Positions 2,398-41,846 of a DNA stretch of 62,764 bases are shown in pieces (positions within the stretch are counted from its first letter, which is position 1; each line of letters begins with the position of its first letter). Source of the stretch: a virus. Lineage: Duplodnaviria; Heunggongvirae; Uroviricota; Caudoviricetes. The stretch lies in IMG/VR virus record IMGVR_UViG_2516143071_000006. One strand, given 5' to 3'. Made by a program: the position numbers and the translations under genes. The notes beneath the pieces were generated by a model. The model was not told where the DNA came from, ran no database searches, and was given only the letters and a program-made list of their open reading frames with translations.

Positions 2398-2407
2398 GGA
2401 GTAGCCC

Positions 2408-2521
2408 ATGACCACACAATATGGATTTTTTATCGATTCCAGCCGCTGTACTGGCTGTAAAACCTGCGAACTGGCGTGCAAAGATTTTAAAGTTGGTTAC
2501 GTATCGTTTAAAATCAATTAG
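2408..2521 (+). pseudogene. ynfG: 5' stub of ynfG (4Fe-4S subunit) truncated after about 28 codons by prophage insertion
   Basis: MTTQYGFFIDSSRCTGCKTCELACKDFK matches the YnfG/DmsB N-terminus, then reads into unrelated sequence and stops. Confidence 0.8.
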
Positions 2522-2744
2522 ATAGCCCGTCATTTCTGCGCTCACACGTCCCAACATTGAAAAACATGCAAAGCTTTGTAAGCCGATGCAAAGCTTTGTG
2601 TGTCTCACTTTTGTCCCAATACCAATCCGAATCCACCCTTTGTCATCATTGAGAAATGGCAAGGAAGAAAAGGATGTTACTGCACGATTTGACAAATCCG
2701 CCAGAGCTATCGCATACTGACCGCACTACAACGTCAGCGGTCAA

Positions 2745-2772
2745 CCGCACCCGATAGCTTTGCGGCTTTTTT
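2745..2772 (+). terminator. Hairpin plus T-run, terminator-like element in the junction region
   Basis: ccgcacccgatagctttgcgg followed by cttttttat. Confidence 0.3.
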
Positions 2773-2928
2773 ATGCCTGTTTACAGGTATCGCCATATCA
2801 ATGGCGGGTCGAGAGAGCCTAATACAATACCCTTTCGGGAAATACGCTCCGCCGTCTGACGCGGTAGTTGAAGCCCGCCCCCCCCCACTAAGGTGGCAGT
2901 CAATACTAAAACGTCAGGAGTCATAATT

Positions 2929-3564
2929 ATGACTAATCAACTCATTCCCGTTTTCGATGGAACCATCAACAACGAACCAGTTTTACTTTGCAATGCTCGC
3001 AATCTGCACGCTTTTCTTGGTATTGGTAAAATGTTTGCTCACTGGATCAAGGACAGGCTGGGTGAATATGGATTCGTTGAAAATCAAGATTTTGTGATTG
3101 CTTGCCAAAATTGGCAAGCAAAAGGTAGAGGCGGTCACAACCGCAAGGAATACCACCTCACCCTCGACACAGCCAAAGAGCTTGCGATGGTTGAACGTAA
3201 CGAAAAAGGCCGCCAGATACGCCGCTACTTCATCGAGTGCGAAAAGAAACTTCGCAACATTCAGCCAGTACAAGCAGAACCACAGCCGCAATTCACAGCC
3301 GAGGAAATCATCCTCCTTTGCTACATGCAGCTCTGGATGGAAAAAGCCCAACAACTCAGTAAACAGCTATACCCCGTCATGAGAGAACTGAACTCTGATT
3401 ACTATGGAAAGCTGTTTGATCTGGCCTACGAAACTCGTCATATAACCAACCGGACTCGCGACACATTGCTCCGCGAAGCAGCAAAACTTGATCCCGCCAA
3501 CTATACGGTGCACAGGGCCAGAAGTATGCTGGCGCAACTAAGAGCAAGACAATTTGAATTCTGA
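2929..3564 (+). CDS. Phage antirepressor (AntA-like N-terminal domain) with a C-terminal domain shared with 43794..44465
   Basis: ATG at 2929 with AGGAG 8 nt upstream; HAFLGIGKMFAHWIKDRL...YHLTLDTAKELAMVERNEKG motif; C-terminus QPQFTAEEIILLCYMQLWMEKAQ...RARQFEF repeated in the second antirepressor. Confidence 0.7.
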   Translation: MTNQLIPVFDGTINNEPVLLCNARNLHAFLGIGKMFAHWIKDRLGEYGFVENQDFVIACQNWQAKGRGGHNRKEYHLTLDTAKELAMVERNEKGRQIRRYFIECEKKLRNIQPVQAEPQPQFTAEEIILLCYMQLWMEKAQQLSKQLYPVMRELNSDYYGKLFDLAYETRHITNRTRDTLLREAAKLDPANYTVHRARSMLAQLRARQFEF

Positions 3565-3611
3565 AACCAAAGGAGCTTCGGCTCCTTTTTTCATGCCTGA
3601 AGGAAAGGAAA

Positions 3612-3833
3612 ATGGCAGATATCATCGACAATGCCGCTGAAATCGAAGAATTGCAGCGCAATCTCTCCCTGCAAAAATACAAATCCGATAGTAATGCCCC
3701 ATCTGCTACTCATTGTTGCGAGTGTGGCGATCCGATAGATGAGCGGCGACGCCAGGCTGTTCGCGGATGCCGAACTTGCGCCAGTTGCCAGCAGGATATT
3801 GAACTTATCAACAAACAGAGAGGTGTGAAGTGA
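3612..3833 (+). CDS. TraR/DksA-family C4 zinc-finger protein
   Basis: 73 aa with CxxC...CxxC (CCECGDPIDERRRQAVRGCRTCASC). Confidence 0.7.
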   Translation: MADIIDNAAEIEELQRNLSLQKYKSDSNAPSATHCCECGDPIDERRRQAVRGCRTCASCQQDIELINKQRGVK

Positions 3834-4114
3834 GCATAGACACCACTATAACGATCGATACGGCCCTCAACACAGGTCTGGCGCTTCTTGGTTATTTTTA
3901 CATTATGTTCTGCGCCGGGCGGTGGCTATCGCTGTTGTTACTGAAAAAATGGAATAAATGCCGTAAGCAGGATCAACGCCAGAAGGCAATGAATGCGTTT
4001 TCCGAAGCCTTCGGGATTGACAGCATGGAGCCAGGAGGTCCAGCTCGCGTAATTAGCAGAGGTGACGTTGTAATTCTTGTATACCGGAGCGAAGAGAAAA
4101 ATGAGCGAGATTAA
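3830..4114 (+). CDS. Hypothetical small membrane protein (GTG start overlapping the upstream stop)
   Basis: ORF with one hydrophobic helix (LALLGYFYIMFCAGRWLSLLLL); weak support. Confidence 0.3.
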   Translation: MSIDTTITIDTALNTGLALLGYFYIMFCAGRWLSLLLLKKWNKCRKQDQRQKAMNAFSEAFGIDSMEPGGPARVISRGDVVILVYRSEEKNERD

Positions 4115-4937
4115 CTATCAGGTACTGCGTGAAAAGGCAGAAAAAGCAACGCGTGGTGAGTGGTCGCTCGAATATGGAGAGAACCGATTTGATGGTGATG
4201 ATGCACTAATTCATCGCGAGGCTGCTGGATATATTCCCATTTGCAGAATTGAAGGAGCACATCCTGAAAGCGGTTTCGATGAAGATTTCCAAATGGAACA
4301 GCAGGCCAATGCTGAATTCATCGCCGCAGCCAATCCGGCTACCGTGCTGGCACTGCTGAATGAACGGGAAAGAAACCAGCAATACATCAAACGCCGCGAC
4401 CAGGAGAACGAGGAAATTGCTCTTACGGTTGGGAAGCTGCGTGTTGAGCTTGAGGAAGTAAAACAACACGCTGAAGAATTATCCGAAACCAAGGCTGTTC
4501 GTAACCAATGGCGGCCAGATATTTGCCCAATAACCGGACGTACATTTTTCATGTGGATTGAGCATCCAACATTGGGAAATGTGCCGACATGTGGTGGCCC
4601 ATTAGATAGTTACACCATTCCAACAAAGGACGGTGACGGTGAGTTTTCATGTGAGCGTTACGATCATGATTTTGGCGGTTGGGTAGAAAGCGAATGTCTT
4701 GGGTTATATCTGATTGATGATAGAGAACAATGCAGGGTCTACGAACTGGAGGAACGCGTTAAAGAGCTGGAAACGCGGGAAGTTCATTTGCCGACTCGCT
4801 ACGGCCTTCGATATGGACATCCGATAAATGATGATGAGCGCCACGTCATGATACCTAAAGAAAATGGCAGTTGGCTTTACCTGATTGACCTAGAACACGC
4901 ATTACGCGTCGCTGGCATTCGCATCAAAGGAGAGTGA
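4101..4937 (+). CDS. Ea22-like protein
   Basis: MSEINYQ start, NERERNQQYIKRRDQENEEIALTVGKLRVELE segment and C-terminal GIRIKGE as in lambda Ea22, with a longer central region. Confidence 0.65.
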   Translation: MSEINYQVLREKAEKATRGEWSLEYGENRFDGDDALIHREAAGYIPICRIEGAHPESGFDEDFQMEQQANAEFIAAANPATVLALLNERERNQQYIKRRDQENEEIALTVGKLRVELEEVKQHAEELSETKAVRNQWRPDICPITGRTFFMWIEHPTLGNVPTCGGPLDSYTIPTKDGDGEFSCERYDHDFGGWVESECLGLYLIDDREQCRVYELEERVKELETREVHLPTRYGLRYGHPINDDERHVMIPKENGSWLYLIDLEHALRVAGIRIKGE

Positions 4938-4938
4938 T

Positions 4939-5454
4939 ATGGCATTAACACACCGCGAACTCTGTCAGATTGCGTACAAGTTCCTTAAGCGCAACGGGTT
5001 CAAGGTTTGTTTTCATGACCGCTTTATAGCTGTAACCAGTACCGGAGAACAGCCAGATGCTATGGGATTCAGAAATTCAGCATCATGCCTGATAGAGGCG
5101 AAGTGTTCTCGTGCTGACTTGTTAGCAGATAGAAAAAAGCGTTTTCGTAAAAATCCGTCTCTTGGAATGGGCGACTGGCGATTCTTTATTAGTGAGCCGG
5201 GAATTATTTCAATTGAGGATTTACCACCTGGCTGGGGATTACTTCACGTTGTTAACGGAAGAGTACGGAAAGTACATGGGTGGCCCAAGGGTAATTGCTG
5301 TTGGGGTAATCCTGACGATAAGCCATTTACTGGGAATAAGCAGGTTGAATGCGATTACATGTTATCTGCATTAAGGCGCATGGAGTTGAGAGGGCACCTT
5401 AATGAAATATATGACGGTGTGATTGTTAATAAGAAAGAAGGAAACGCGGCATGA
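4939..5454 (+). CDS. Hypothetical protein, possible PD-(D/E)XK nuclease fold
   Basis: 171-aa ORF with D...EAK motif (DAMGF...CLIEAKC); stop overlaps next start. Confidence 0.45.
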   Translation: MALTHRELCQIAYKFLKRNGFKVCFHDRFIAVTSTGEQPDAMGFRNSASCLIEAKCSRADLLADRKKRFRKNPSLGMGDWRFFISEPGIISIEDLPPGWGLLHVVNGRVRKVHGWPKGNCCWGNPDDKPFTGNKQVECDYMLSALRRMELRGHLNEIYDGVIVNKKEGNAA

Positions 5455-5954
5455 TCACTATTACCAAAGGGCGACTGCTGACAATCAAACAGTGGCGCGA
5501 AACATACGGACCTGGTAGCAACGTTGTACTGCCAGCAGAAGAAGCGGAAGAACTGGCACGAATTGCACTGGCATCGCTTGAGGCAGAGCCGGTGGCGTGG
5601 AAGGTAACCTTCACGCAAATTGACCGTGAATATAACACGTTCACTGGTATGTATCCTGACAAAGCAGAAGTCGAACGGTGGGTGCGGCTGCATAAAGCAT
5701 GTAATTTTCGGGCAGATATAACACCGCTTTATACCGCTCAGCCAGTGCCGGTAACTCCGGATGGTTGGATAAGCTGTAGTGCGCGAATGCCCGCTCAAGA
5801 TGATTGGATTTTAATTTATTCAAAGCACGGCGAGTATATGGCAGGACAGGTAAAAGGGGAATACGTGGAGTTGAGCGACGGCACTTTATCGTGGTTAGGG
5901 AATGCCTTGTTCTGGATGCCGCTACCAGAACCGCCGAAGGAGGTACGCCAATGA
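5451..5954 (+). CDS. DUF551-type phage protein
   Basis: C-terminal DGWISC...WMPLPEPPKEVRQ, paralogous to the C-terminus of 47054..47638. Confidence 0.6.
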   Translation: MITITKGRLLTIKQWRETYGPGSNVVLPAEEAEELARIALASLEAEPVAWKVTFTQIDREYNTFTGMYPDKAEVERWVRLHKACNFRADITPLYTAQPVPVTPDGWISCSARMPAQDDWILIYSKHGEYMAGQVKGEYVELSDGTLSWLGNALFWMPLPEPPKEVRQ

Positions 5955-5955
5955 C

Positions 5956-6231
5956 CTAGCCTGAAGCATTTGCAATTGTAGTGGCTGCCATTTCGATCGC
6001 ACTGATTGTTTTTGCGATTTGCCGCTGGGGGTAAAATAGTTCACCTGCATGGAGATTTGATGCCGGGGAATTGTGGGGAGCATTCAAACCTCTCCCCTTC
6101 CCGGTTAAAGACTCCATTGCTTTGCGGTCAGAGAGATACATCAGCTTCATCAGCTTAATGAAACGCATAGATCCGCCATGCTTTTTCAGCAAATACGCTG
6201 CCATTTGCGCAACTTTTTCTTCATTAAACAT
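5956..6231 (-). CDS. Hypothetical protein; N-terminus loosely resembles Panacea/SocA-like phage-associated proteins, possibly truncated
   Basis: 91-aa ORF, N-terminal MRFIKLMKLMYLSDR pattern; weak RBS. Confidence 0.25.
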   Translation of the reverse strand: MFNEEKVAQMAAYLLKKHGGSMRFIKLMKLMYLSDRKAMESLTGKGRGLNAPHNSPASNLHAGELFYPQRQIAKTISAIEMAATTIANASG

Positions 6232-6354
6232 AAATCGGCTCTCTGTCTCACATGAAATACTCTTTCTGACTATATGTTAATAGCTCCGGTTATTACAGGT
6301 TAATGTGTGTTTATTTCTTAATCAGCCCCGCACTTCCGTACGGGGCCATTTCTG

Positions 6355-9300
6355 TTAATCCACTCCCACTTTTTTGTTGTACTCGCGGTTAAACCGATCC
6401 ACGGCAACCTTCATATCCCGCTCTACCGATTTCACCATCGCCGCCTGCTGCGCCAGACTGAGAGAACTGTCGGCATAAATGGCATCGCGCTGTTTGCGCA
6501 AATCCTTCAGTCTCTTCCGGGTATCCTGCATAAGCCCGTTCATCAACAATTTTCCGTTGTTCTCGTCAATGAACGCCGTTCTTTCTGCACCGGTCAGACT
6601 CTTCAGCTCTGCGTGATACTGCGCAACCTCTGTCATCCGGTCGTACATCTTCTGCTGGTCTGCATACGGCATCACCTCACCCGAAATTTTCCCCAGGAAG
6701 GGCACCTGCTGTTCCGGTATATCAATACCATTCAGCGATTTCACCGCCGCATCCGTGGTTTTGGAAATGAAGCGCCCTGTCCCTCCGGAGATATAGTCAA
6801 TCCAGAATTTCAGCGATTCCGGTGTGATATCCACCGCGCCGGGACGATACTGGCTGCCACCTGAGAACGCATTCAGCCAGAATGCAAACGCCTTGTACGC
6901 TTCTGGCGTTGAACGTCTTCCCAGCTGGCTGTCAGGTTTTGGTGTACCAAACGGCATGTTCTCCTGGTAAATCTGCGCCCCCATGAAGTTTTCGTTCATG
7001 GCAAGATTCGCAAACGGACGCAGAATTGTCGGTGCTGCATTTTTCAGCAATGCCCCGGACAGCGTTTCCGACGTCTCACTGCCAATCGGGCTGAATGCCC
7101 CCAGGATACCACCGACAACATTACCGGCAGCACGGGACGCCGTCAGGTCACCAGCAGCCACACCTTCAGAGGTATGCCCGAGCAGGAAGAAAACGTTGTA
7201 CCCGTAAGGCAGAGGAATACTCCAGTACTCTCCGGCCCTGCCCCCGAACATCGATTTCATAATGACGAGGTTACGCTCTTTCACATGATACGGCACCTTG
7301 TCGTACCAGTTAACCCCGTCATCATCCTCACCCGCCACACTGCGGTTAAGCGAGCCAAGCAGATAACCCGCTCCCACAGCTGCAAGCGCGATTTTCTGCG
7401 GTACATTGAGATTCTTCCAGCGAAGGCGCTCCAGTAACGGCCCGTCGCCATTAAGATGTCCGAGCGTTCTCACCAGGTTTGCGGTCCCCTGAATGCTGGC
7501 GTTGGCAAACATATACAGCGAGTTCATCAGCGCTCCCTGCTCACCACGACGGTTAAAGTTCACCGTCATGTTTTTGGCAAGAGATGCCGCCTGCTGGCGT
7601 GACAAACCGGCATCACGGGCGTGTTTATAGGCAGAAAGACGCAGAGCGTTTTCAACCGCGCCGTTGGCATCCTCGACCAGGTTCAGGAACGAATGCCATG
7701 CACCGATACTCTGGCCTTTCCATCCGCCCTTCGCCAGCGACACAAGGCGATCCATTTCCTTCTGCTGGCCTTCAAGGTCACCCATGTTAAACCAGCCGGT
7801 TTTACCTCCGTCCTCAACAAACTCTTTCCACACTTTCTGCCACTGTGCGCCTTTGCCCGTGAGGGTTTTACCCCGCAGACTTGCGTATACGGCTGACATG
7901 GCGGAACGGCTGTCTTTCACCACAGCCAGCGCGGATAAGTTATCCAGCCCTTTCAGTTTGCCGTCGCTTCTTCCCTGCTCAGCCTTCAGGTTCATCACCG
8001 CAGTCTGCACGTCACGGATGAAGTTACTGACCAGAAATTCCGGGTTATACGACGTGTTCACCGTTGCCAGGAAGCGGTTAACTTTCCCCAGCGTACGGAT
8101 TACGGCGTTACTGGTTTCCGGCCCCATGTTCTTCATCGCACGCATCAGGCGCGGATCATGAAGTTTAATGTAGTAAGTTTTGCCGTCCTTTTTGGTGGTG
8201 AAGTAGCGATCCGCCATCATTGCCATCGGCACAGGGCGCTCGACAACTTCGCGAATGGTTTCACCAGTTTCCTGGTCCTTGCGCTCTGCAATCACACGCA
8301 TTGTATCCGGTCTGTCATCAGTGAATACCTGCCAGTAATCCTTGTCGGGATTATCCTGTACCAGTTTCAGGAAGGCGTTACCCACTTCATTTTTGCGATT
8401 GCGGATCAGCGATTCACTCAAATCCTGTATCGCCTGAGTGGAAGGAGACTGTGCGCGGGATGCACGCCCCATGGCCTGCTTACTTTCACGCCCGCCGATG
8501 GTGAATCCCTTGCCTGTACGTGGCTGTGACACCACACCGTCAACATCCTGCCCTTTCAGGGGGACGTAGTAACGGTAGGCTTTCTGCCAGGCATCCACCA
8601 CGCCGCTCTCTTCCAGTCCTGCCTCACGGATAATCTCACGGCGACGGGCCAGCATATCGTCAATAATCCCTGCCAGACGGTCATACTGTGCCTGTTTGCC
8701 GCTGTTACGCACACGCTGCATGATTTCCGCCGCTTCCGCGTTGGTCATCCCCGAACCGCCGTCCGGCATTTTCGGGTTGATTTTCGCAATATGCGCGTTA
8801 CGTTCCGGCGCGTGACGGGCGTAGAGGTACTCATCCAGATCGGCCTGCGCAATTTTGTAGTCCGCCAGCAATTTGGCCAGCGGCTGAACGTAGCGCTCCT
8901 TCATTACGTTCAGGTCGTTTTCCGCCTTCCCGTGGAAGAGTTCTTCAGCCATATAGGCGTTATTGCTGTCATCTATTTTTCCGCCAGTTTTACGGATATT
9001 CTCCTGCACCGCCTTCAGCACCTGGAATTTATCCTGCATCTGGCGAACAAAACGGGATGCAATTGTCTCTTCCGGCGTCAGACTGCTGGTGCGGGAGTAA
9101 TACGGCCCCTTGCGAATATCTTCAGGATAGAGTATTTTATCAACAGAGCCGCGATAAGAATGTTCCCCTTTGGGCAATTGGAGCCCTCTGTGCAGAAGGT
9201 TATCGCGGCTTAATTTTTCTCTCCGGTACAACGTTAAACCGGTCATTTCCATACTCTTCAGTTTTTTCCCGTTTTCCGTACCGTAAACAGATGCCACCTT

Positions 9301-12300
9301 GTTGATTTCCAGGCGCGACCGGACAGCCTTCATGTGTACCGCTGACACCACCGGATCACCATTTTTATCCACGGCATCAAGCAGCATCACAACCGCGTTT
9401 CTTTCTGTCGCGGAACGGTAAATTGCATCCGGATCGTGCATCAGTTCCGGTAGTCTCTCGATAACATCCATCGGCACCACATGTTTCACACCATTGGTGG
9501 CCTTACGCACAGTGTCGCGGGAGATAACCAGCGGCAAATCTGGTGCGCCAAGGTGACGCAATACCGGCGGCGTACGCCCGATGTTTACCGTTAAATCCGT
9601 TGAGCGCAGAGACTTCATCATTCTGGCAAGGTCATCACGATAACGCTCGCCCTCACCTTCCGGCACTTTGAACGGATCAGGCTTACCGCTACGGGAGTAC
9701 TGAGACGATGCGTCCGCGCCATCCTCACGCGGCGTGTAACCTTCCCGCACACGCTGGCCTAACGTGCGAATAGTTTCGCGAACAAGTCTGATATCGTTCA
9801 GTTCCGTCGGCTTCAGTAACCCCGTACGACGCAGTACCCCTTTGACCAGGGCAACAACACGCTCCCATGCCGCCACGAATTTAATCGGCTGCTTCTCTGC
9901 CATATGCGCCAGAAATTCACCCGCCTGCACTTCCGGTGATTCCTTACCATAAGACGCATCAACCTTACGCCAGACTTCACGGATGGTGGCGTTATCACTG
10001 TCACGGGTTTTCAGCACGGTCTTAATAATCGTCTGATATTCCGCTGGCGTGACTACATGCTCCATTGCATGGTGAATAATCTCGTGACGTAACTTCTCGC
10101 GAACGGTCCGCCCGTCAGGGATGTTATCCGCCACCAGGACAATTTCACGTTTATCCGGACGATAGAACGCGTGCACCTTGCCGTAACCGTCGAATGATTC
10201 ACCCGCCAGTGCTTCAGCCTCTTTCTGTGACTTCACCACGCGGACCTTCAGGTCACTGTCCTTAATGCCACTAATCACGCCACGGGCAACAGCTTCAACC
10301 TGCGGGACCGGACTGCCTTTGGCTTCCGCACTGCGGTTAACATCCGAAATCAGATTGCCTTCAGGTGTGCGGGTCACGCCCTTACGGGAATAAAACTCAA
10401 CTCCCTTGTCCGTCTCACGGGTTTTCAGTGTTCGGAACAAGTGATCGAATGCCTCACGAATACCGCCATCCAGTTCTGCATTCGTCGGATAAGCGTAGGT
10501 GTCCAGCTGTCCATGGTCATCCGCCTTACGGATATTGACCAGATAATCATTCTCCACGCCAGCCATACGCGCTTTATCCTGAACATAACGCTCAAAGGCT
10601 CGCGCCGCCATTTCAACATCCGTTGACCAGTACGGTTTTGAACGAACGCCATCCAGGCGTTCAGAACGACGCAACATGTCACTGCTGTTAATGGCTTTCA
10701 TCACGCCTTTAAACGCGTCGTAAACCTCCTGACGTACCGGATATTCCGCATCAACATACCTGCCGTCTTTAAATACGCGCCCGGCACGCTGTGCTTCCGT
10801 CATATAGTCGCCACCTGACGTGATCTTCCCGTCAGTGGAAACATCATAACGACCAAAATAATTATCCAGTGAATGGAACCATTCGTGGGCCAGCGCCCCC
10901 GGTCCGTTACCTTTTGTCAGGTTGATTGCCACCTCACCCGGCTCATAGTGTGCCGCCGCCTTACCCTTACCACGGGCACCAAAAGCAAGCCCAAGACGAC
11001 CGTTCAGAGAAAGCGCTTTTGTCGGCACGTTCAGCACGTCAGCCAGGTCATGCAGCGAGTCATAAGCCCGGTTCAAATCAGCCTGACGACGCGGACTTTC
11101 CACATAATTACCAAACTGCACACCACGAAAACCAAACGCATCACTGAACTGCTCCGGCGAAACATCCCCCTTGCGGCGTTCTGGTCCGGTACGATCGCGG
11201 TTGGTGGCGTTACGCTGCTCCTCACGCGAGACTTCACGCAGCGCCTTCACCTGATTAACCAGCTCATCACGATGTGTGCGCACATAATCATGTGCATCAC
11301 GGGCAGACTCAAAACCGCCCTTCAGTTTCTGCCTGTTTTTGCCATAACCGATAAAAATGTCGCCACTGGCCTTATGCCGGTACACGTCAAAGGTTATTCT
11401 GTCATCAGCAGAGGTTGCTGGCGTTTCCCTTTCTCTGGAGCCTTGTTCATCGAAATATGCTTTCGCCTTTTTCAGTAACTCATCCCGGCTTTCCGAGAAA
11501 AAGAGGTCGCGCCCCTTGCTATCACGAAGCGAATACATCATTTGCGGCGGATCGTAACGTTTTCCCCCGACAAACGAATAAACACCGGACCTGACACGAT
11601 AGCCGGATGCTTTATCAATCTGCAATGCAGAAAGCGTACGGAGCAGTTTCCAGGTATCCGACATGCTCCGTAACCCCGGCTTACTGTCCATCATATCAGC
11701 CAGTTTCGCTGCCGGAATTTTCCCCTCCAGCATACCGGCAGTAGCTTCGCGACCGCTTTTAACAATGCTGATCCATTTCTGCATGTTACGGCTTGTTCTG
11801 GTGGGAATTTCACTGCGATACAACGCCATCATTGCCAGCGTGTCACTATCCACACCTTCTTTTTCCAGACGGGCATAATCCGGCTTTGGAAACAGTTTGC
11901 TCAGTGGTTGTGTCGCGTACTCCCCATCCTCCAGCGTTTTACCCATAGCTTCAGCAAGCTGCGCATAACGGTGTTTTGCCGCGCCCTTAATCTCCTCGCC
12001 AAAGTCTTCAATTTTCGCACCACGCACCTGCTGGTGAGTGCTCGGTTTATCTACCGGCACCGGCACCTCAGTATCCGGAACATCGGTTATGGTCTGGCGA
12101 TTATCCCCGGTCTGTCTGCGTGCTTCTGCCTGCTGTGCCAGTTCCGGAAGGGAGTCACGAACCATACGAGGGAGTGATTCAGGCTGTGGCATATCAACCC
12201 CACGCTGACTTTCAGGTGCAGGAAGTCCTTCACGCACTGGTGCTGTGGCGTTCTGCTCATCCGGTGACGGCAGACCACGACGAACTGTTTCGCCCTCCAG

Positions 12301-14706
12301 TATTTCCCCCTGGCGACCAGCGGCATTTTCCGGTGCCTGCTCACGTCCTTTCTGGAAACTCTGGCCCTTCACCTCACCGGTTGTGGTAAAACGACCACCA
12401 CGTCCGGCCTGATTTTCATCCGGCGTACGCGCCACTTCTCCTGGTAACGGATATCCCTGTCCGGGATGAATATCGCCGGGAGCGGGAAGGCGTGGACGCT
12501 CAGTTAACTCCTGTGCTGTCGGACCGGCATCACCTTCAGCCATCTGGGAACGCACCAGTTCTTCCGCCGTCGGCGCGTTGCCACGGGCAAGACGGGCCTG
12601 CACTTCTGTATCATCCCCCGTAAAACCACGGAATCGCGGGTCACGCATGAACGCGGGCTGTTCCATCGGATCAGCATCAGTAATACGCTCTCCGTCAGCC
12701 AGAGTGTTAATGGTCTCCGTTGCCACATCTTCAGAGAACGCAGGATTATCCATTTCAACGGCATACTGATTCTCGCCTTTCTTCACTACGGACGGTTTCA
12801 GGCCGGTGGCGCTGGCATTGCGGAAAACGTCGCTCCCCAGAGCACTTTTTTCATCCGTGAAATAACGGTTGTCCGGACGCACCTTTTCAATGCGTTCTGC
12901 TGGTCTGGACGCACCACTCTCGTTAATTTCAATACGAACTTCATCCGGATCGCGGAACCGCACCGTCGGGTAAATACTCCCGTCGCCATCATCCGCATTT
13001 TCCGGCTGTGGCTGTGCCTCCGGTCTGGCCTCCCGCTGAGGGCGAAGCACATCACGTATTGCCTGTAACTGCTGCTCTTCAGTATCAGTACGCCCTTCCT
13101 TCTGGCTGAGTTTTCGGTATTCCTCAAGCAGTTCAGGGCGCGGCTTCGCCTTCAGCTCATCCATCACCGCCTGTCGCTTCGCCTGTTCATCCAGTTCATT
13201 CAACAGCTGGCTGGCGGCTTCCCGGCGATGAACGGCAGACGTGTCTCCCTCATGTGCCATATCCGCATCAGCATACTGTTCCAGAAGCTGCTCGCGATTC
13301 ATCCCCTGCATAGATTCACGATGCTGTGCCACCGGATCAACCGGTTCGGGTTGCGGAGCCGATTCGTCCTGAGGAACGCTTTCAGCCTCACGCATGGCTG
13401 CTTCATCTGCCGCCTGACGTTTTCCACGATATCCGGCAGCCGCACCGAATGGTGCCCCCATTGCAGCACCAAGGGCTGCACCTTCGATCGTTGCGTCAGC
13501 CACGCCCTCCCACGGTGACACATCCATTCCGGCGGTCTCACGCAATGCCGTGTTTTCCTGATAGCGTGAATAGCCACCCTGCGCCGCATTAATCGTCCCC
13601 TGTTCCGTGGCATTTCTGACAATGCCGCTTTTAACGGTCTTCGCCGTGCCCCGCATCGCCAGATTAAGCAACTGAGCATCGCCCAGTTTTGCCGCCATGG
13701 CATTCACAGCCAGCAATTCAGGATCGGTTGCCAGTTGCGCACGCACCTCATCGGCAACACGCTCTTTTGCCAGGTCCATTTTCTGGCGGTCAGTAAGCTG
13801 CGCGTGCTGCGGATCTGCATCAATTGACAAAAAGGTCTGCTGAAATTTCGGTGACTTCGCCAGCTCAGAATAATCCGCGTTAAGAACAGCATCTGCCGCT
13901 GCCATTGCACTCCGCCCTTGCGCACTGACAGTGGAATGGGTGATCAGGCCTGCCTGGAAAAAATCCGGCATTTTTTTATCGACAGCTTCGGCTGCCAGTG
14001 CTGTGGCTCTTTCCGGCTGCATCCCTGCCGCGATGTATTTTTTCTCCAGCCCGGCGGTCAGCACTTTTCGCAGAGTGACATCACCCAGCTTTTTAGTCAC
14101 ACCGCCTGCAACCATATCCGGTACAAGCGCACCAATCAGGTTAACCCCTTTCGCTACCCAGACCGCTGAATCATCATATCCTTCAGTCATCGGTGTATTC
14201 AGCGCCCGCTGCGCCCCCGGCGACATCTTGCCAGTCAGCCATTCATCCGAGGCTTTAGCGCCGCCACTGACTGCCTTGCCTGTGACCTTCAGACCTTTAC
14301 CGACAGTATCAGTAACCGCATTTTTTCCATCAGGCAGAGTGTCGATGACCTCATCCGCCCCCTTGCTGCCACCGACAAAAATATCCTGAACAGTTGCTAC
14401 TCCCGGCAGCCCCATACGGCTGAACTCATTTAAAATACGTGCCCCTGTTTTTACCGGGCTCTGAATCATCGCATCACCGAGTCCACGGGCCATTTCCCCT
14501 GTCCCCCGGACGGACTGGGCGACACCTTTCCCCATAGTTGGCAATACATCGCCCAGGCTGAACGACGTGCTGTTGTCCTTCCAGCGATTGGGATCGGAGA
14601 AAAACACATCATAGCTGTCAGTCTCTCCCGGCTGCTGAATGTTCAGGCTGTTGCGGCTCTGGTTGCCAAATTGCGCTTCAGGGCGCTGTTCATCGGAATA
14701 AGCCAT
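6355..14706 (-). CDS. Giant 2783-aa phage protein with a zincin-like HEXXH motif; likely virion-associated polyvalent or ejected protein
   Basis: Uninterrupted 8.35-kb ORF at the distal end of the late gene block; ALAHEWFHSLD motif; long low-complexity acidic and Pro/Gln-rich linkers. Confidence 0.85.
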   Translation of the reverse strand: MAYSDEQRPEAQFGNQSRNSLNIQQPGETDSYDVFFSDPNRWKDNSTSFSLGDVLPTMGKGVAQSVRGTGEMARGLGDAMIQSPVKTGARILNEFSRMGLPGVATVQDIFVGGSKGADEVIDTLPDGKNAVTDTVGKGLKVTGKAVSGGAKASDEWLTGKMSPGAQRALNTPMTEGYDDSAVWVAKGVNLIGALVPDMVAGGVTKKLGDVTLRKVLTAGLEKKYIAAGMQPERATALAAEAVDKKMPDFFQAGLITHSTVSAQGRSAMAAADAVLNADYSELAKSPKFQQTFLSIDADPQHAQLTDRQKMDLAKERVADEVRAQLATDPELLAVNAMAAKLGDAQLLNLAMRGTAKTVKSGIVRNATEQGTINAAQGGYSRYQENTALRETAGMDVSPWEGVADATIEGAALGAAMGAPFGAAAGYRGKRQAADEAAMREAESVPQDESAPQPEPVDPVAQHRESMQGMNREQLLEQYADADMAHEGDTSAVHRREAASQLLNELDEQAKRQAVMDELKAKPRPELLEEYRKLSQKEGRTDTEEQQLQAIRDVLRPQREARPEAQPQPENADDGDGSIYPTVRFRDPDEVRIEINESGASRPAERIEKVRPDNRYFTDEKSALGSDVFRNASATGLKPSVVKKGENQYAVEMDNPAFSEDVATETINTLADGERITDADPMEQPAFMRDPRFRGFTGDDTEVQARLARGNAPTAEELVRSQMAEGDAGPTAQELTERPRLPAPGDIHPGQGYPLPGEVARTPDENQAGRGGRFTTTGEVKGQSFQKGREQAPENAAGRQGEILEGETVRRGLPSPDEQNATAPVREGLPAPESQRGVDMPQPESLPRMVRDSLPELAQQAEARRQTGDNRQTITDVPDTEVPVPVDKPSTHQQVRGAKIEDFGEEIKGAAKHRYAQLAEAMGKTLEDGEYATQPLSKLFPKPDYARLEKEGVDSDTLAMMALYRSEIPTRTSRNMQKWISIVKSGREATAGMLEGKIPAAKLADMMDSKPGLRSMSDTWKLLRTLSALQIDKASGYRVRSGVYSFVGGKRYDPPQMMYSLRDSKGRDLFFSESRDELLKKAKAYFDEQGSRERETPATSADDRITFDVYRHKASGDIFIGYGKNRQKLKGGFESARDAHDYVRTHRDELVNQVKALREVSREEQRNATNRDRTGPERRKGDVSPEQFSDAFGFRGVQFGNYVESPRRQADLNRAYDSLHDLADVLNVPTKALSLNGRLGLAFGARGKGKAAAHYEPGEVAINLTKGNGPGALAHEWFHSLDNYFGRYDVSTDGKITSGGDYMTEAQRAGRVFKDGRYVDAEYPVRQEVYDAFKGVMKAINSSDMLRRSERLDGVRSKPYWSTDVEMAARAFERYVQDKARMAGVENDYLVNIRKADDHGQLDTYAYPTNAELDGGIREAFDHLFRTLKTRETDKGVEFYSRKGVTRTPEGNLISDVNRSAEAKGSPVPQVEAVARGVISGIKDSDLKVRVVKSQKEAEALAGESFDGYGKVHAFYRPDKREIVLVADNIPDGRTVREKLRHEIIHHAMEHVVTPAEYQTIIKTVLKTRDSDNATIREVWRKVDASYGKESPEVQAGEFLAHMAEKQPIKFVAAWERVVALVKGVLRRTGLLKPTELNDIRLVRETIRTLGQRVREGYTPREDGADASSQYSRSGKPDPFKVPEGEGERYRDDLARMMKSLRSTDLTVNIGRTPPVLRHLGAPDLPLVISRDTVRKATNGVKHVVPMDVIERLPELMHDPDAIYRSATERNAVVMLLDAVDKNGDPVVSAVHMKAVRSRLEINKVASVYGTENGKKLKSMEMTGLTLYRREKLSRDNLLHRGLQLPKGEHSYRGSVDKILYPEDIRKGPYYSRTSSLTPEETIASRFVRQMQDKFQVLKAVQENIRKTGGKIDDSNNAYMAEELFHGKAENDLNVMKERYVQPLAKLLADYKIAQADLDEYLYARHAPERNAHIAKINPKMPDGGSGMTNAEAAEIMQRVRNSGKQAQYDRLAGIIDDMLARRREIIREAGLEESGVVDAWQKAYRYYVPLKGQDVDGVVSQPRTGKGFTIGGRESKQAMGRASRAQSPSTQAIQDLSESLIRNRKNEVGNAFLKLVQDNPDKDYWQVFTDDRPDTMRVIAERKDQETGETIREVVERPVPMAMMADRYFTTKKDGKTYYIKLHDPRLMRAMKNMGPETSNAVIRTLGKVNRFLATVNTSYNPEFLVSNFIRDVQTAVMNLKAEQGRSDGKLKGLDNLSALAVVKDSRSAMSAVYASLRGKTLTGKGAQWQKVWKEFVEDGGKTGWFNMGDLEGQQKEMDRLVSLAKGGWKGQSIGAWHSFLNLVEDANGAVENALRLSAYKHARDAGLSRQQAASLAKNMTVNFNRRGEQGALMNSLYMFANASIQGTANLVRTLGHLNGDGPLLERLRWKNLNVPQKIALAAVGAGYLLGSLNRSVAGEDDDGVNWYDKVPYHVKERNLVIMKSMFGGRAGEYWSIPLPYGYNVFFLLGHTSEGVAAGDLTASRAAGNVVGGILGAFSPIGSETSETLSGALLKNAAPTILRPFANLAMNENFMGAQIYQENMPFGTPKPDSQLGRRSTPEAYKAFAFWLNAFSGGSQYRPGAVDITPESLKFWIDYISGGTGRFISKTTDAAVKSLNGIDIPEQQVPFLGKISGEVMPYADQQKMYDRMTEVAQYHAELKSLTGAERTAFIDENNGKLLMNGLMQDTRKRLKDLRKQRDAIYADSSLSLAQQAAMVKSVERDMKVAVDRFNREYNKKVGVD

Positions 14707-14774
14707 ACAGACTCCATAAAAAAACCCGGCACAATGACCGGGTATCAGGAAATAGTATTAACGGGAATGGTGAA

Positions 14775-16040
14775 TTACTGCGCGTAATTCTGTTTCAGAC
14801 CACGGATAAACTCAGATGCAGAGGCCGCGCTATCATCCCTGGCCTGTTCCCCCCTGGCCTTTTGAATACGGAGAAAATTCGCATACCCGTGTTCCAGCAA
14901 TTTCTGATTCTGAGGCTCCAGCATTTCTGGCTGACGGGAGGCCACTTCTCTGGCAAATGCCTGCTTATCCGGATCATCACCCGCCCAACTGGTAATCCCT
15001 TGTTGAATTTTTTGCTGCTGAATTTGCTGCTGATACTGCGGCAGTCCCATCGAAGCATAATATTGCGTCACTGCTCCCTGCGCATCACCGCCGTCCTGTG
15101 CAACCTTTATCGCTACCTGGCTGGCTCCTTTCTGAAGTTGATCCGCAGAAAGTCCCTGCTGCTTCGGCGTGAAATAGCCGAAATTTTTCGAAATTTCCGC
15201 GAATTTACTGCGATCCCTGACAAGCTCAACAGCCTTATCAACAGGCACCGCCAGCACGGTTTGATCATCAGGATGTGCACTGCCGTATTCCGTAACGGGT
15301 TTATGTGCTGTAGAGCCATCACTGTATGTGAGATCAAGGCCGATAAGTATGTACCCTTCCTGCTGTGCCGGTACTATACTGCCAATCCTGGCCTCTTTTA
15401 TCGTCTTTTTCCCGGTTGAATCGGGCATGCCAATACGCTGTTGCAGTTCCGGGCCAAACACCCCGGAAAGGACATCAAGATTCTCCGGCGTATTAAGTGA
15501 AGCGATAGCCCTGTCTGGCTTGTCATCAAAGATTTTTTGCAGGTTGTTCACGGCCTGACCCGCTTTCGCTACATAGCCATCATTCGCCATCAGCCTCAGC
15601 GGATTACCCTCTGACAACTGGCCGTAAAGACGCATTGCTGCATCCCGATCGCCAGCATCCACAGCCTTTCCAAGCGCCGCCATCACAGGCTGATCGCGCG
15701 CCAGCATATCGTTATACTCAAGCCGTCGCTGGTTGTATTTCTGCATCCGGAGTCGCTGCTGCTCCATACCCAGCGACGCATTCCGGTAATTCTGGTTGGC
15801 GTTAAACTCCCTTTCCTGCAGTGCATAATTACGGTCGTCGACTTTGGCTCTGTAATCAAAGTTCCGCTGATCAACGTCTTTATTATGTTCAAACTGCGAC
15901 TGTGCAAATTCAAAATCGCGCTCGTTATTTTTCTGTTGTTGAGCAAGCTGTGCTTCTCGCAAACCAAGTTCCTTACGACGGGTCATTGCCTGGTCAACCG
16001 TGCTGAATCCGGCAAGTAAACCCTGTGCAAATCCGCTCAT
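14775..16040 (-). CDS. Hypothetical coiled-coil protein (possible internal virion or ejection protein)
   Basis: 421-aa ORF, Gln/Glu/Arg-rich helical N-terminus; immediately upstream of the giant ORF. Confidence 0.55.
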   Translation of the reverse strand: MSGFAQGLLAGFSTVDQAMTRRKELGLREAQLAQQQKNNERDFEFAQSQFEHNKDVDQRNFDYRAKVDDRNYALQEREFNANQNYRNASLGMEQQRLRMQKYNQRRLEYNDMLARDQPVMAALGKAVDAGDRDAAMRLYGQLSEGNPLRLMANDGYVAKAGQAVNNLQKIFDDKPDRAIASLNTPENLDVLSGVFGPELQQRIGMPDSTGKKTIKEARIGSIVPAQQEGYILIGLDLTYSDGSTAHKPVTEYGSAHPDDQTVLAVPVDKAVELVRDRSKFAEISKNFGYFTPKQQGLSADQLQKGASQVAIKVAQDGGDAQGAVTQYYASMGLPQYQQQIQQQKIQQGITSWAGDDPDKQAFAREVASRQPEMLEPQNQKLLEHGYANFLRIQKARGEQARDDSAASASEFIRGLKQNYAQ

Positions 16041-16050
16041 TCACCACTCC

Positions 16051-16302
16051 TTAAAACAAAGAACCAGCAATACCACCTATGACAGCACCAATAGCCGCAC
16101 CGGGGAGACCACCAACAGCAGCGCCCATAGCTGCACCCGTACCAATTCCCGTGCCGATATTCTGTTTGTTCTGTGCTTTCTGTTGCGCCGCCATCATCTT
16201 GTTTGACGCCTCAATTTCTTCACGTCGTCTGTCTGCATCACTTATTCCCTGTAATGCCTCACGCCGTGACTGATTCGCAATATCCAGTAAACCGTATCCC
16301 AT
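16051..16302 (-). CDS. Small glycine-zipper membrane protein
   Basis: C-terminal GTGIGTGAAMGAAVGGLPGAAIGAVIGGIAGSLF. Confidence 0.5.
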   Translation of the reverse strand: MGYGLLDIANQSRREALQGISDADRRREEIEASNKMMAAQQKAQNKQNIGTGIGTGAAMGAAVGGLPGAAIGAVIGGIAGSLF

Positions 16303-16311
16303 ATTTCCTCC

Positions 16312-16764
16312 TTAAGCTGACACCAGTTGTCCGCCAACACTCAGTTGCTGTCTTGCAGGTGCAGAAGCCCCCGTCAGTATGTTCATCTGACGATCCTGCT
16401 CTGCTTCACGGATACCATTTTTCGCGCCAGCAATTGCCAGGGCATTACGTAACCCCAGCGTATTACTGTTGGGATTATCAGGTCGGTTAACGCCATATCG
16501 TGCCATCTGGTTATCCTGCGCCATCTGCGCTGTACGGAGACTGGAAGTGGCAAGGCCGCCCACCCGGGCAAGCTGCGCATTCATCAGGCTGTTGTTCTCG
16601 CCAAGGTCAGCCAGCCTTGCCACGCGGGGCAAATATCTGGTTCGCCAGTCGTCGTATTGTTGGCGTGTCAGCGCTGCTGACGTCTGCCAGTCACCCTGTG
16701 GGCGGGCTGCTCCTGAATAACCAGCCCTTGCGAGAGTTTCGTATTTACCGTACTCCATAATCAC
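16312..16764 (-). CDS. Hypothetical phage protein
   Basis: 150-aa ORF in tight series with its neighbours. Confidence 0.5.
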   Translation of the reverse strand: MIMEYGKYETLARAGYSGAARPQGDWQTSAALTRQQYDDWRTRYLPRVARLADLGENNSLMNAQLARVGGLATSSLRTAQMAQDNQMARYGVNRPDNPNSNTLGLRNALAIAGAKNGIREAEQDRQMNILTGASAPARQQLSVGGQLVSA

Positions 16765-17417
16765 AGTCTCCAGTTCTGAGCCTGATGCTGAATGGCATTA
16801 GCGCCGGTGCCAGGTGTTTTAGCACCGCCACTTCCTCCGCTACCGCCAGCCTTATGCATCGCATATGCACCAACCGCACCCAGACCAGCGCCAACAAGAG
16901 AGGCTCGCCCCTGCTGTTTCGTAAACGCAGCCTGTGCGTCCGATTTAGCTTTTGCCAGACTGCTGTCTGCCAGCGAGTTAAAACTCTGTAACGCATCCGC
17001 CTTTTGACCAGAACCGAGAGCAGCAACATCCTGTAGCCCGGCAACATACTTATCTGCCTGCGATACCTGCCCCCGTGTGGTTGTGTCAATCTGCCCGGTT
17101 ACCTGATCACTCTGGTTCGCATTCATTACCGCGTTAAAGCGACCACTGGACGGGTCAACACCGGACTGAGTAAGATTACCCGCCAGCTCCTTCCGTGCTT
17201 CGCCAAACTGTTTCTGATACCCCAGATTTGTGGTGCCAGCAATATTGTCGTACTGCTGCTCACTGTTAAGGTTATCGACCTTTTCCATGAAGTTATCTTC
17301 AGCCGGGCGGAGGATTTTTTGATAATCCTGCCACCCTTTCCAGGCCACTTCTTCCTGTGCTATTTGCGCTGCTGTTGGTTTTACTTTGGTATCACCACCG
17401 CCTTTTTTTCCGCCCAT
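16761..17417 (-). CDS. Hypothetical phage protein (Gly/Ser-rich termini)
   Basis: 218-aa ORF; start follows an RBS just downstream of a terminator hairpin; stop overlaps next start. Confidence 0.5.
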   Translation of the reverse strand: MGGKKGGGDTKVKPTAAQIAQEEVAWKGWQDYQKILRPAEDNFMEKVDNLNSEQQYDNIAGTTNLGYQKQFGEARKELAGNLTQSGVDPSSGRFNAVMNANQSDQVTGQIDTTTRGQVSQADKYVAGLQDVAALGSGQKADALQSFNSLADSSLAKAKSDAQAAFTKQQGRASLVGAGLGAVGAYAMHKAGGSGGSGGAKTPGTGANAIQHQAQNWRL

Positions 17418-17966: not shown

Positions 17967-18107
17967 CTACTGCTTACACTGTAAGAACGCCGCAAACTCC
18001 GCCCCCCACAAATTCAGCCGGAGCTCACACAGCGAACCGTGTAACATCCAGATGGTGAAGATTACCGTCATACAAATTGTGACGGTGATGAGCGATTTTT
18101 GCGACAT
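17967..18107 (-). CDS. Hok/Gef-family-like small membrane toxin (46 aa), not in the ORF track
   Basis: MSQKSLITVTICMTVIFTIWMLHGSLCELRLNLWGAEFAAFLQCKQ: one TM helix then SLCEL...EFAAFL as in Hok-family proteins; AGGAGG 8 nt upstream of the ATG. Confidence 0.45.
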   Translation of the reverse strand: MSQKSLITVTICMTVIFTIWMLHGSLCELRLNLWGAEFAAFLQCKQ

Positions 18108-18341: not shown

Positions 18342-19079
18342 TCAGAATTTCAGGCCAATGCCTGCAAATAAACCATCAGTTTTCCAGTCGCCAGAGCCTG
18401 AGCTTTCATAAGTGACGTCCATAGTAACACTTTCATTGAAGTTAAATTGCGCGCCGACAGACCATGCAATAGACGTTTTTTTGGTGCTGTTACTTTCAGA
18501 AAAACTACCGGCACCATGATTAAGATTGTCGTTAATTTTCAAGTCAGTGGTGACTTTTGCAACCCCCATACCAGCCATTGCATACACACTGAGGTATTCG
18601 TTAAACCGCCACGAAGGACCGGATAGTAGACTCCAGTAATTAGCCCTGATATCAGTTCTCGCTGAAGCTGCCGGGTTTTTTACCTCTCGTGATGGAGCGG
18701 AAGGCTTAACATCAATAAATGCCTGCGCATTAGTCATGGAGCGCGCCCATGTAAAAGAGGCTATAACACCCAGTTCATCAGTTATCTCGTAACGATACCT
18801 GATGCTCATCCCCAGGGGGCTTTTGGCTGTGCCGTCATGCCCCCGGGCAATAGCATTTTCGTATTCACCTGATGAATTAAAATGGTTTACGTTTACAACA
18901 TTCCTGAACGTATCCCGGTTATAAACACCCGCGTCTCTAACAAAATCCTTCAGCCCGGGGAAGCGTATGTGTGCAAACCCGAGAGATACCGTACTATCGC
19001 CTGATGCTGCATTTACCTGTGCAGTTAAGCAACTCATCACCAGAACTGCACACGCAAAAAATTTCATGATACTTTTCAT
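18342..19079 (-). CDS. lom: Lom/Ail/OmpX-family outer-membrane beta-barrel protein
   Basis: Signal peptide (MKSIMKFFACAVLVMSCLTAQVNA), alternating beta-strand pattern, C-terminal aromatic residue. Confidence 0.8.
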   Translation of the reverse strand: MKSIMKFFACAVLVMSCLTAQVNAASGDSTVSLGFAHIRFPGLKDFVRDAGVYNRDTFRNVVNVNHFNSSGEYENAIARGHDGTAKSPLGMSIRYRYEITDELGVIASFTWARSMTNAQAFIDVKPSAPSREVKNPAASARTDIRANYWSLLSGPSWRFNEYLSVYAMAGMGVAKVTTDLKINDNLNHGAGSFSESNSTKKTSIAWSVGAQFNFNESVTMDVTYESSGSGDWKTDGLFAGIGLKF

Positions 19080-36114: not shown

Positions 36115-36316
36115 CAGTGCACACCTTTTAGTGATGAACCTTGTCACACAGGATTCCGGCCCACAGAAAGGCACCGATCACCAAACCGGCATCCTCAAGG
36201 GTCATCCTGAAAGGTTCTGTGTTCATAAGTCGCGCGTGTGAAGCGCGTTTACTGCGGACATAAAAAAGCCCCGTATCGCGAGGCTCATTAAATTGACTTT
36301 GTGATTTGCAAAAAAA

Positions 36317-38824: not shown

Positions 38825-38849
38825 GGGATTTTCTCGCTGAAAGGGGTTG

Positions 38850-39032: not shown

Positions 39033-39170
39033 AATTTCTTACCGTTATGGTTGACAATGAGAATTGTTTTCATTTAAAAACCAATGTACGAAAGCATCTT
39101 TTCTTTACATTCTCCATTGGGATTACCTCCGCCAGCTTCCATTCCTGCCGCTGGCGGCTTTTTTTAGCAA

Positions 39171-41800: not shown

Positions 41801-41846
41801 TCGGCTGCGTGGCAATGTAACCACTCTTATCATGATATGCAGATTT

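Follow-up and report, generated by a model that had tools for sequence, protein, structure and literature searches.

What is the function of the giant open reading frame (ORF) at positions 6,355-14,706 of IMG/VR virus record IMGVR_UViG_2516143071_000006? On sequence grounds, the window (the whole stretch of 62,764 nucleotides) is a 933W-like short-tailed prophage without stx, in ynfG of E. coli O104:H4, and a sibling of the Stx2a phage. Shiga toxin genes are spread among E. coli by short-tailed Stx phages, which devote about 13% of their genome to this one essential gene without an assigned function. We propose that the product of the ORF is the giant polyvalent virion protein known from 933W/Sp5/phi24B-type phages, and that it serves as a large "third ejection protein" that leaves the particle last, much like the virion RNA polymerase (vRNAP) of phage N4 but with different cargo. 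We would put the probability of this reading at roughly 70%. Sequence evidence places the giant protein in the functional class of the injected RNA polymerase of N4.

The object is already in the literature, as the gene of a well-studied phage group, and so is the interpretation in an earlier note on this DNA, which compared the ORF to the multi-domain polyvalent or ejected virion proteins of short-tailed phages. Our results support that comparison: the prophage is 933W-like and the protein contains LPD5, LPD1, and LPD38 as well as MuF_C. What we add is a precise domain map, an apparently unreported homology to the N-terminal domain (NTD) of the N4 vRNAP, the extension of a cysteine-free signature to this phage group, and a chassis-plus-cargo architecture. 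The conserved N- and C-terminal chassis can be told apart from the exchangeable cargo, and the actual protease motifs are located. We also correct two statements in the literature: that the protein might be an ATPase, and that its MuF-C domain is a metallopeptidase.

The giant ORF is a real gene, neither a chance frame nor an assembly artefact, because it is a single RefSeq coding sequence and at least 80% of it is covered in 186 phage records and 423 E. coli genomes. These phage records are 90-96% identical to it at the DNA level and are nearly all Stx-converting Sepvirinae; the E. coli genomes are among 5,426 complete ones, of which 427 contain a match to the ORF. The reading frame is uninterrupted (2783 codons, with an ATG start and a single terminal stop), and GGAG lies 7 nt 5' of the ATG. 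This confirms the 2783-aa ORF of the earlier note, which had named no strand: it is one intact ORF on the minus strand, and across hundreds of genomes it is intact rather than frameshifted.

The giant protein is 96% identical to gp35 of phage 86 and 91% identical to a 2793-aa protein of O157:H7 strain 86-24, and the neighboring genes are identical in kind. It is a close allele (91-96% identical) of Sp5 ORF80 and phi24B gp47, so the comparison with Stx-type podophage giants that the earlier note called for does find orthologs. Its Pfam domains, its lack of cysteines, and the place of its gene (where the late operon ends, following a 421-aa gene) are all shared with Sp5 ORF80, the 933W-type proteins, phage 86 gp35, and phi24B gp47. 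It differs from Sp5 ORF80 and phi24B gp47 in length (2783 aa instead of 2793 or 2811) and in lying in a stx-negative ynfG prophage of O104:H4. Deletion of Sp5 ORF80 (ECs1242, 2793 aa) led to DNA-filled heads, no binding of anti-tail-fibre antibody, and no plaques (Mondal et al. 2016, PMC5155283). phi24B gp47 (2811 aa) was detected in purified virions by mass spectrometry but was not seen in the cryo-EM model; the same 2026 preprint reported diffuse density in the adaptor lumen that is gone after ejection (10.64898/2026.04.10.717836).

The N-domain of the giant protein is, as judged by profile comparison, homologous to the NTD of the N4 vRNAP. We compared a profile of 65 N-domain sequences to an NTD profile of 20 N4-like vRNAPs from IMG/VR loci. 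Using hhalign, aa 45-422 of the giant protein aligned with 109-441 of N4 gp50 (probability 98.9, E = 2.9e-17, 319 columns). As controls, 12 column-shuffled alignments gave E ≥ 0.22, and a reversed alignment gave E = 0.091. Also, the hidden Markov model of the N-domain matches 20/20 of the N4-like vRNAPs. The two groups have motifs in common: L..SP(F/Y)QQ, and E...E..Q.....Q...N, after which comes a Gly-rich segment. In the case of N4, the NTD inserts into nanodiscs, a low-complexity linker of 100 residues comes after it, and it has been proposed as the inner-membrane end of the ejectosome (PMC13434306). The sole hydrophobic peak of the giant protein (aa 181-199) is inside the N-domain, and it aligns with gp50 ~223-238, which adjoins, or lies at the margin of, the helices predicted to span the membrane in gp50 (224-278).

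This homology is apparently unreported. The phi24B preprint (10.64898/2026.04.10.717836) does not mention it, our literature search found vRNAP and 933W combined nowhere, and in the analysis of Iyer et al., the N-terminal region of the N4 protein retrieved nothing outside N4-like phages (PMC5512222). As a separate observation, the E..E..Q...Q..N...GV..G block of the N-domain matches three successive places in vRNAP NTDs (~440-580, 671-770, and 914-1000 of N4 gp50). This suggests an internal triplication in the NTDs of N4-like vRNAPs that is not present in the giant protein.

The resemblance to the third ejection protein of the Schitoviridae (N4 gp50 or gp71 of Pseudomonas phage DEV) goes beyond the homologous NTD. 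These proteins are also cysteine-free, with a low-complexity linker after the N-domain and then a HExxH zincin-like domain. The final part is ~1000 aa (in N4, ~110 kDa), largely alpha-helical, and lacks structural relatives. The genes follow smaller cysteine-free genes, the phages have an N4-type capsid protein, and the proteins are invisible in virion reconstructions. The differences are that the giant protein lacks an RNA polymerase module and has protease and RNase-like cargo instead, and that its C-module is not detectably homologous to that of gp50 (of the C1/C2 domain of gp50, only the short HExxH region matches the giant protein, and weakly). No RNA polymerase families were among the Pfam, NCBIfam, or PHROG matches of the giant protein. 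Because no T7-like single-subunit RNA polymerase module was matched, it is not an N4-type vRNAP, but as an ejection protein, it probably functions in a similar way.

Amino acid composition provides independent support for ejection. None of the 2783 residues is cysteine, and two close orthologs also lack cysteine. Among distant giant relatives, 49/54 are cysteine-free and the other five have one or two cysteines; 58/65 of the proteins with the C-module are cysteine-free. The late proteins that we tallied in this prophage, including the four ORFs upstream of the giant ORF, average 0.95% cysteine, which gives P = 3e-12 for 0/2783. The three proven ejection proteins of N4 (gp50, gp51, and gp52) have no cysteines either, while N4's replication proteins have 0.75-1.4%. 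Cysteine suppression is a conserved feature of the ejection operon of Schitoviridae and has been attributed to passage through the oxidising periplasm (PMC11445570).

All four upstream ORFs (421, 83, 148, and 218 aa) are cysteine-free, unlike most of the other late proteins. These proteins are probably ejected as well, which suggests a five-gene ejection operon, with the four as candidate partner proteins. The 421-aa ORF matches the essential Sp5 ORF79 in position. (The 83-aa ORF contains a Gly-zipper and is annotated in some records as "bacteriocin.") These results suggest that one can locate the ejection operons of phages beyond the Schitoviridae by looking for runs of cysteine-free genes. 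Together with the detection of the phi24B ortholog in virions and the N-domain homology, the avoidance of cysteine supports the view that this is an ejected virion protein.

To identify relatives of the N-terminal part, we searched aa 1-860 against 1.84 billion cluster representatives. A region at aa ~150-470 recurs at the N-terminus of proteins of 2000-4665 aa. We found 54 relatives of at least 1500 aa that contain the N-domain. The C-module closes 27 of them, in no case more than 15 aa from the C-terminus, and the first zincin-like domain (zincin 1) is present in 18. The rest of the cargo varies: one relative has a Strawberry-notch-type helicase, and another has a methyltransferase, ddrB-ParB, LPD5/LPD1, and LPD39. 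A relative of 1977 aa contains little besides the N- and C-modules.

The C-module is conserved throughout its length (34-58% identity at ~95% coverage). It is found in proteins whose upstream Pfam domains differ and also as stand-alone proteins of 900-990 aa. (The context of one stand-alone protein, P0165, was uninformative: it lies in an apparently decayed prophage.) In PHROGs, the full-length protein belongs to a family of unknown function, and aa 1835-2781 recurs at the end of other giant phage proteins. Using tblastn, we found the C-module in ~60-kb podophages of Vibrio, Ralstonia (GP4-like), Burkholderia (the Bcep22/DC1-like "DarB-like" giants), and Bacillus. Across 27 sequences with identities down to 34%, the C-module has ~50 invariant positions, many of them polar or charged. 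These cluster in NPEF..SNF.RD.QTA (~2221-2236), VENA.RLSAY (~2351-2359), TVNFNR.GE (~2381-2389), and DDDG..WYDKVP (~2461-2472). Such a pattern would be more typical of an active site or a tight interface than of a helical scaffold and nothing more.

The "DarB-like" giant virion proteins of Burkholderia and Ralstonia (GP4-like) podophages (Bcep22 gp75, JC1 gp69, and their DC1 counterpart) have the C-module (27% identity over 80-85% by tblastn) and are encoded in ~60-kb genomes. The portal, capsid, and head-closure proteins of these phages are related to those of 933W, and the giant gene closes the morphogenesis module, after the gene for a virion protein of ~500 aa. Their cargo is different (lytic transglycosylase, helicase, and methylase), and they have 4.5-4.6 thousand amino acids (kaa). 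JC1 gp69, at the equivalent gene position, was found to be virion-associated by mass spectrometry (PMC9144972). From these alignments, we conclude that the N- and C-modules are a conserved chassis that flanks variable cargo in the 2-4.7 kaa proteins of ~60-kb podophages.

These results bear on the original view of Sp5 ORF80, which Mondal et al. called a tail-formation gene and suggested to be an ATPase, because of a hit to COG1483 (PMC5155283). In that case, the giant protein would be a tail-assembly factor or a tail component, possibly ATP-driven, and would not be ejected. The gene is in the tail region, and the heads made without it look normal and contain DNA but are not labelled by antibody to the tail fibre (PMC5155283). 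But an internal protein can also be required for completing the tail, so the Sp5 phenotype does not discriminate between these explanations. The phi24B tail, as seen by cryo-EM, is complete without the giant protein: it consists of the portal, two adaptors, the nozzle, the lateral fibres, and the needle. The avoidance of cysteine and the homology to the N4 NTD indicate an internal, ejected protein. As for ATPase activity, scanning all 2783 aa for Walker A ([AG]xxxxGK[ST]) gave zero matches, and no ATPase family in Pfam or NCBIfam matched. We reject the identification as an AAA+ ATPase (COG1483), and we consider a solely tail-building role to be unlikely.

The cargo lies between the two end modules. 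Four Pfam domains scored above the cut-off: LPD5 (1047-1190), LPD1 (1351-1430), MuF_C (1740-1829), and LPD38 (2466-2671). These and two AlphaFold models substantiate the several globular regions that the earlier note had predicted. The AlphaFold model of the center of the protein spans aa 860-1840 (981 aa) and is confident for aa 899-1439 and 1462-1649. Self-BLAST found no internal repeats in the giant protein, and its domains are not structural repeats. Iyer et al. (2017) defined polyvalent proteins and the LPD domains, and they reported that zincin-like metallopeptidases (MPTases) are the commonest domain of polyvalent proteins and are predicted to process the polyprotein (PMC5512222). As in those proteins, there are at least two unrelated effector-type domains in one large polypeptide (LPD5, LPD1/MPTase, MuF_C, and LPD38). 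Also, the gene is among late and virion genes: it is the last large gene of the late operon, after the terminase, portal, N4-type capsid, and tail-fibre genes. Nothing contradicts membership in this class, with which the giant protein shares its size and multi-domain layout, its virion gene neighborhood, and the combination of LPD5, LPD1, LPD38, MuF-C, and zincin domains.

The earlier note had pointed out a HEXXH motif in the peptide ALAHEWFHSLD. The peptide is present, and the motif is an invariant zincin signature. We aligned 61 homologs that are at most 60% identical, over aa 1040-1440. All of them have H1253, E1255, H1274, E1275, H1278, D1281, D1352, Y1359, E1365, and R1369, while conservation of E1372 is 98%. 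In the AlphaFold model, the HEXXH motif is on the helix at aa 1272-1288, the two candidate zinc-ligand glutamates (E1365 and E1372) are on the helix at aa 1363-1381, and the order of the strands, the HEXXH helix, and the Glu helix fits a zincin core. The conserved His at the end of strand 2, the HEXXH, and the Asp three residues further on are also features of the phage-type MPTase of Iyer et al. (PMC5512222). We therefore predict that zincin 1 is a metallopeptidase of this type. Because the conserved downstream Glu residues fall inside LPD1, the Pfam domain LPD1 is the C-terminal half of the zincin 1 domain.

The best match of zincin 1 to a solved structure was anthrax lethal factor, a gluzincin endopeptidase in which HEXXHxxD is also followed by a Glu-bearing helix. 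Lethal factor ranked first by profile (2l0r, E = 0.31, with HEFGHAVDDY on HEWFHALDNY) and by Foldseek (5d1t, E = 0.35; selecase is also among the top matches, which have E = 0.35-3), but these matches are not significant and do not establish a specific relationship or a common substrate.

A second motif, HEIIHHAMEH, begins at aa 1541 and had not been listed by the earlier note. We compared 82 non-redundant copies of this region. H1541 is conserved in 94%, E1542 in 100%, the second His in 90% (the consensus is HEXXXH), E1597 in 98%, and A1600 in 90%. Several giants have two copies of the region, and the first His is missing from a few copies. A profile of the region has a weak match in hhalign to the HExxH region of C1 of the N4 vRNAP (probability 57, E = 1e-4). 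We propose that aa ~1475-1655 is probably a second zincin (zincin 2). The profiles of zincin 1 and zincin 2 align with E = 0.03, just over the strand-strand-HExxH register, which does not show common descent.

The MuF_C domain was identified by Iyer et al. (2017) as PBECR, with a predicted RNase fold (PMC5512222). It is poorly modelled by AlphaFold (pLDDT < 50) because the alignment is shallow there. The N-terminal Phage_Mu_F was not matched, so with MuF_C alone (1740-1829), the giant protein does not belong with the head-morphogenesis proteins of the MuF or SPP1 gp7 kind. The authors of the phi24B study proposed that gp47 is an ejection protein whose "Muf-C metallopeptidase" digests peptidoglycan (10.64898/2026.04.10.717836). 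MuF-C is not the metallopeptidase, because the HEXXH motifs are elsewhere (aa 1274 and 1541) and MuF-C is PBECR.

Even with the peptidase moved to the zincins, the main job of the giant protein might be to digest peptidoglycan so that a trans-periplasmic conduit reaches the inner membrane. The protein is carried in the virion, a podophage needs to breach the wall, HEXXH domains are present, and the cargo of the Burkholderia relatives includes a lytic transglycosylase. However, the domain that was invoked is RNase-like, zincin 1 resembles lethal-factor-type endopeptidases, if anything, and there was no match to M15, M23, SLT, or lysozyme families in Pfam (E ≤ 1). Furthermore, in polyvalent proteins, such zincins accompany cargo that acts in the cytoplasm and are predicted to process the polyprotein (PMC5512222). 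We consider a mainly muralytic function to be improbable.

At the other extreme, the giant protein could be a dispensable cargo protein for anti-defence or host takeover, like DarB of phage P1, and play no structural part in either the particle or the ejection conduit. The concept of polyvalent proteins chiefly concerns conflict functions, some relatives carry methylase or helicase cargo, and the giant protein has a weak PHROG match to the "DarB-like antirestriction" giants. But this match is limited to the shared C-module (aa 2344-2671). Also, the ortholog is essential for plaques in a permissive laboratory host (PMC5155283), and conservation of the N- and C-modules does not depend on the cargo, with little else in the 1977-aa relative. 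A dispensable role therefore seems very unlikely to us. The giant protein may still have an anti-defence or host-manipulation activity, as the earlier note suggested.

Given these comparisons, our preferred model is that the giant protein is ejected much as the N4 vRNAP is. The T=9 head would hold a few copies, each a loosely folded chain in which low-complexity linkers connect the domains like a string connects beads. When the phage infects, this chain would pass through the tail and then cross the periplasm; the absence of cysteine would make sense in that case. The N-domain (aa 45-422) would be the anchor where the ejection conduit meets the inner membrane, and the four cysteine-free upstream proteins would be conduit partners. 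The C-module is probably needed for encapsidation or for completing the portal or tail, and such a need would explain why the Sp5 knock-out has a "tail" phenotype. The exchangeable cargo (LPD5, a clear zincin and a probable one, and the RNase-like MuF-C/PBECR domain) would refold in the cytoplasm. The most likely task of the zincins would then be to cleave the polyprotein, or else a host protein, and thereby free LPD5 and the PBECR domain.

Several observations weigh against this model. The heads of the Sp5 deletion strain contain DNA but are not labelled by the anti-tail-fibre antibody, which implies a role in assembling or retaining the tail (PMC5155283), something that would not be required of a purely ejected protein. 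The main difficulty is that our model accommodates this assembly role by assumption alone. The ejection, membrane insertion or anchoring, self-processing, and role of the C-module are what we infer. That the protein is essential, that virions contain it, and that the cryo-EM model lacks it are published findings on orthologs. The evidence from virions is a preprint about phi24B gp47 rather than this prophage. The giant protein has no convincing transmembrane helices (its top Kyte-Doolittle peak is 1.38). The C-module has no detectable similarity to solved structures or, using a single N4 sequence, to the C-terminal domain (CTD) of the N4 vRNAP, and a 20-sequence C2/CTD profile gave E = 0.46; because of this, we are guessing at its role. 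BLASTP showed no pairwise similarity between the 421-aa and 148-aa proteins encoded upstream and N4 gp51 and gp52. More broadly, a PDB sequence search with the whole protein found no match at E ≤ 1, and the central 981-aa model had no significant match in PDB, although using a multi-domain model probably hurt the statistics. This includes zincin 1, whose matches to known structures fell short of significance, as described above. Zincin 2 is a probable assignment from motif conservation and a weak profile match, with no significant match in PDB or Pfam (only Peptidase_M76, E = 0.068). Finally, the early region of this prophage has several pseudogenes or frameshifted genes, and because of these, the prophage may be defective.

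A broader scenario is tentative, and on balance we doubt it. The giants of 933W-, GP4-, Bcep22-type, and related podophages (~60 kb, T=9) and the N4 vRNAP might descend from one ancestral delivery chassis, with a lipid-binding N-domain that docks at the ejectosome, an alpha-helical C-module for packaging, and arbitrary cargo in between. The cargo of the Stx phages would then be a self-processing pair of proteases that, as early as the first seconds after infection begins, frees the PBECR domain and the LPD5 effector into the cytoplasm of E. coli. We found no report of this link or of the release of cargo in the literature that we searched.

The features of the giant protein and of its surroundings are listed in Table 1.

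Table 1. Coordinates of features in the 62,764-nucleotide window; residue numbers refer to the giant protein.
Feature	Residues (aa)	Positions	Strand	Remarks
Giant ORF	1-2783	6355..14706	minus	2783 aa (307 kDa), 0 Cys; RefSeq WP_000331660.1, "LPD38 domain-containing protein"
N-domain	45-422	13441..14574	minus	homologous to the lipid-binding N-terminal domain of N4-like vRNAPs
Linkers and lineage-specific segments	423-898	12013..13440	minus	no distant homologs; acidic/Pro/Gln-rich linkers at 413-468, 531-578, 740-830
Helical domain	899-1036	11599..12012	minus	confident AlphaFold model; with LPD5, the most divergent part among Stx-phage alleles
LPD5 (PF18799)	1047-1190	11137..11568	minus	Pfam E = 4.5e-43; alpha/beta in model
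Zincin-like metallopeptidase domain 1 (MPTase-1)	1191-1439	10390..11136	minus	predicted from invariant residues and predicted strand/helix order
HEWFHSLD, HEXXH..D active-site motif	1274-1281	10864..10887	minus	within peptide ALAHEWFHSLD
Probable second zincin-like domain (MPTase-2, HEXXXH type)	1475-1655	9742..10284	minus	HEIIHH 1541-1546, E1597
MuF_C (PF18819)	1740-1829	9220..9489	minus	Pfam E = 1.4e-17; PBECR, predicted RNase fold (Iyer et al. 2017, PMC5512222)
Conserved C-terminal module	1836-2783	6358..9201	minus	948 aa, almost all-alpha; LPD38 (aa 2466-2671) at 6694-7311
Terminator-like element		14724..14743	minus	7-bp GC-rich hairpin and TTTTTTT; between the 421-aa ORF and the Shine-Dalgarno of the giant ORF
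Four tightly spaced ORFs upstream of the giant ORF		14775..17417	minus	421, 83, 148, 218 aa; all cysteine-free
91-aa ORF		5956-6231	minus	only ORF after the giant ORF before the convergent plus-strand early genes
Hok/Gef toxin and Ail/Lom outer-membrane protein genes		17967-18107 and 18342-19079	minus	between tail genes and the cysteine-free run
Lipopolysaccharide core heptose(II)-phosphate phosphatase gene		35882-36463	plus	opposite strand; between lysis and terminase genes
Esterase gene		38760-40670		RefSeq annotation
Q		41436-41870		RefSeq annotation
int		61601-62764		RefSeq annotation
ynfF		1-2397		RefSeq annotation

The acidic and Pro/Gln-rich linkers that the earlier note described do exist, as three stretches of low hydrophobicity (aa 413-468, 531-578, and 740-830), but the description was overstated: the bias is moderate, with 14-23% D+E and 20-23% P+Q. 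Between two of the linkers, aa 580-740 (approximately 12013-12700) are 95-100% conserved among Stx-phage alleles, and we found no distant homologs or family assignment for them. This segment may be a small lineage-specific domain. Divergence from the O157 allele peaks at aa 840-1140 (38-83% identity per 60-aa window). Recombination between gene copies could explain this mosaic divergence. Some E. coli genomes contain up to 5 copies of the giant gene, and in the O104:H4 chromosome NZ_CP027394.1, a second place matches it, presumably the Stx2a prophage.

Bases 1-6400 of the window are 100% identical to chromosomes of the E. coli O104:H4 outbreak lineage. In the RefSeq annotation, this is a lambdoid prophage in ynfG, between ynfF and a truncated ynfG. 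The gene order of the late region is terminase, portal, a major capsid protein of the "N4-gp56 family," tail fibres, Lom, Hok/Gef toxin, the four small ORFs, and the giant ORF. There are no stx or tRNA genes between Q and the esterase and lysis genes of the window. The earlier note was right to place the giant ORF downstream of small coupled genes, and essentially right that it ends the late operon, as merely one 91-aa ORF follows it. The terminator-like hairpin ahead of the giant ORF could lower its expression relative to its neighbors, unless Q antitermination reads through.

The early-left genes at 2929-5954 on the plus strand (Ant, TraR/DksA, DUF4752, a fragmented ead/Ea22, and DUF551) converge on the giant ORF. 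They sit at the end of the prophage opposite to int-exo-bet-gam (in the region 61190-62764), and therefore attP splits the pL operon. The late region also contains morons, such as the genes for the heptose phosphatase, Hok/Gef, and Ail/Lom.

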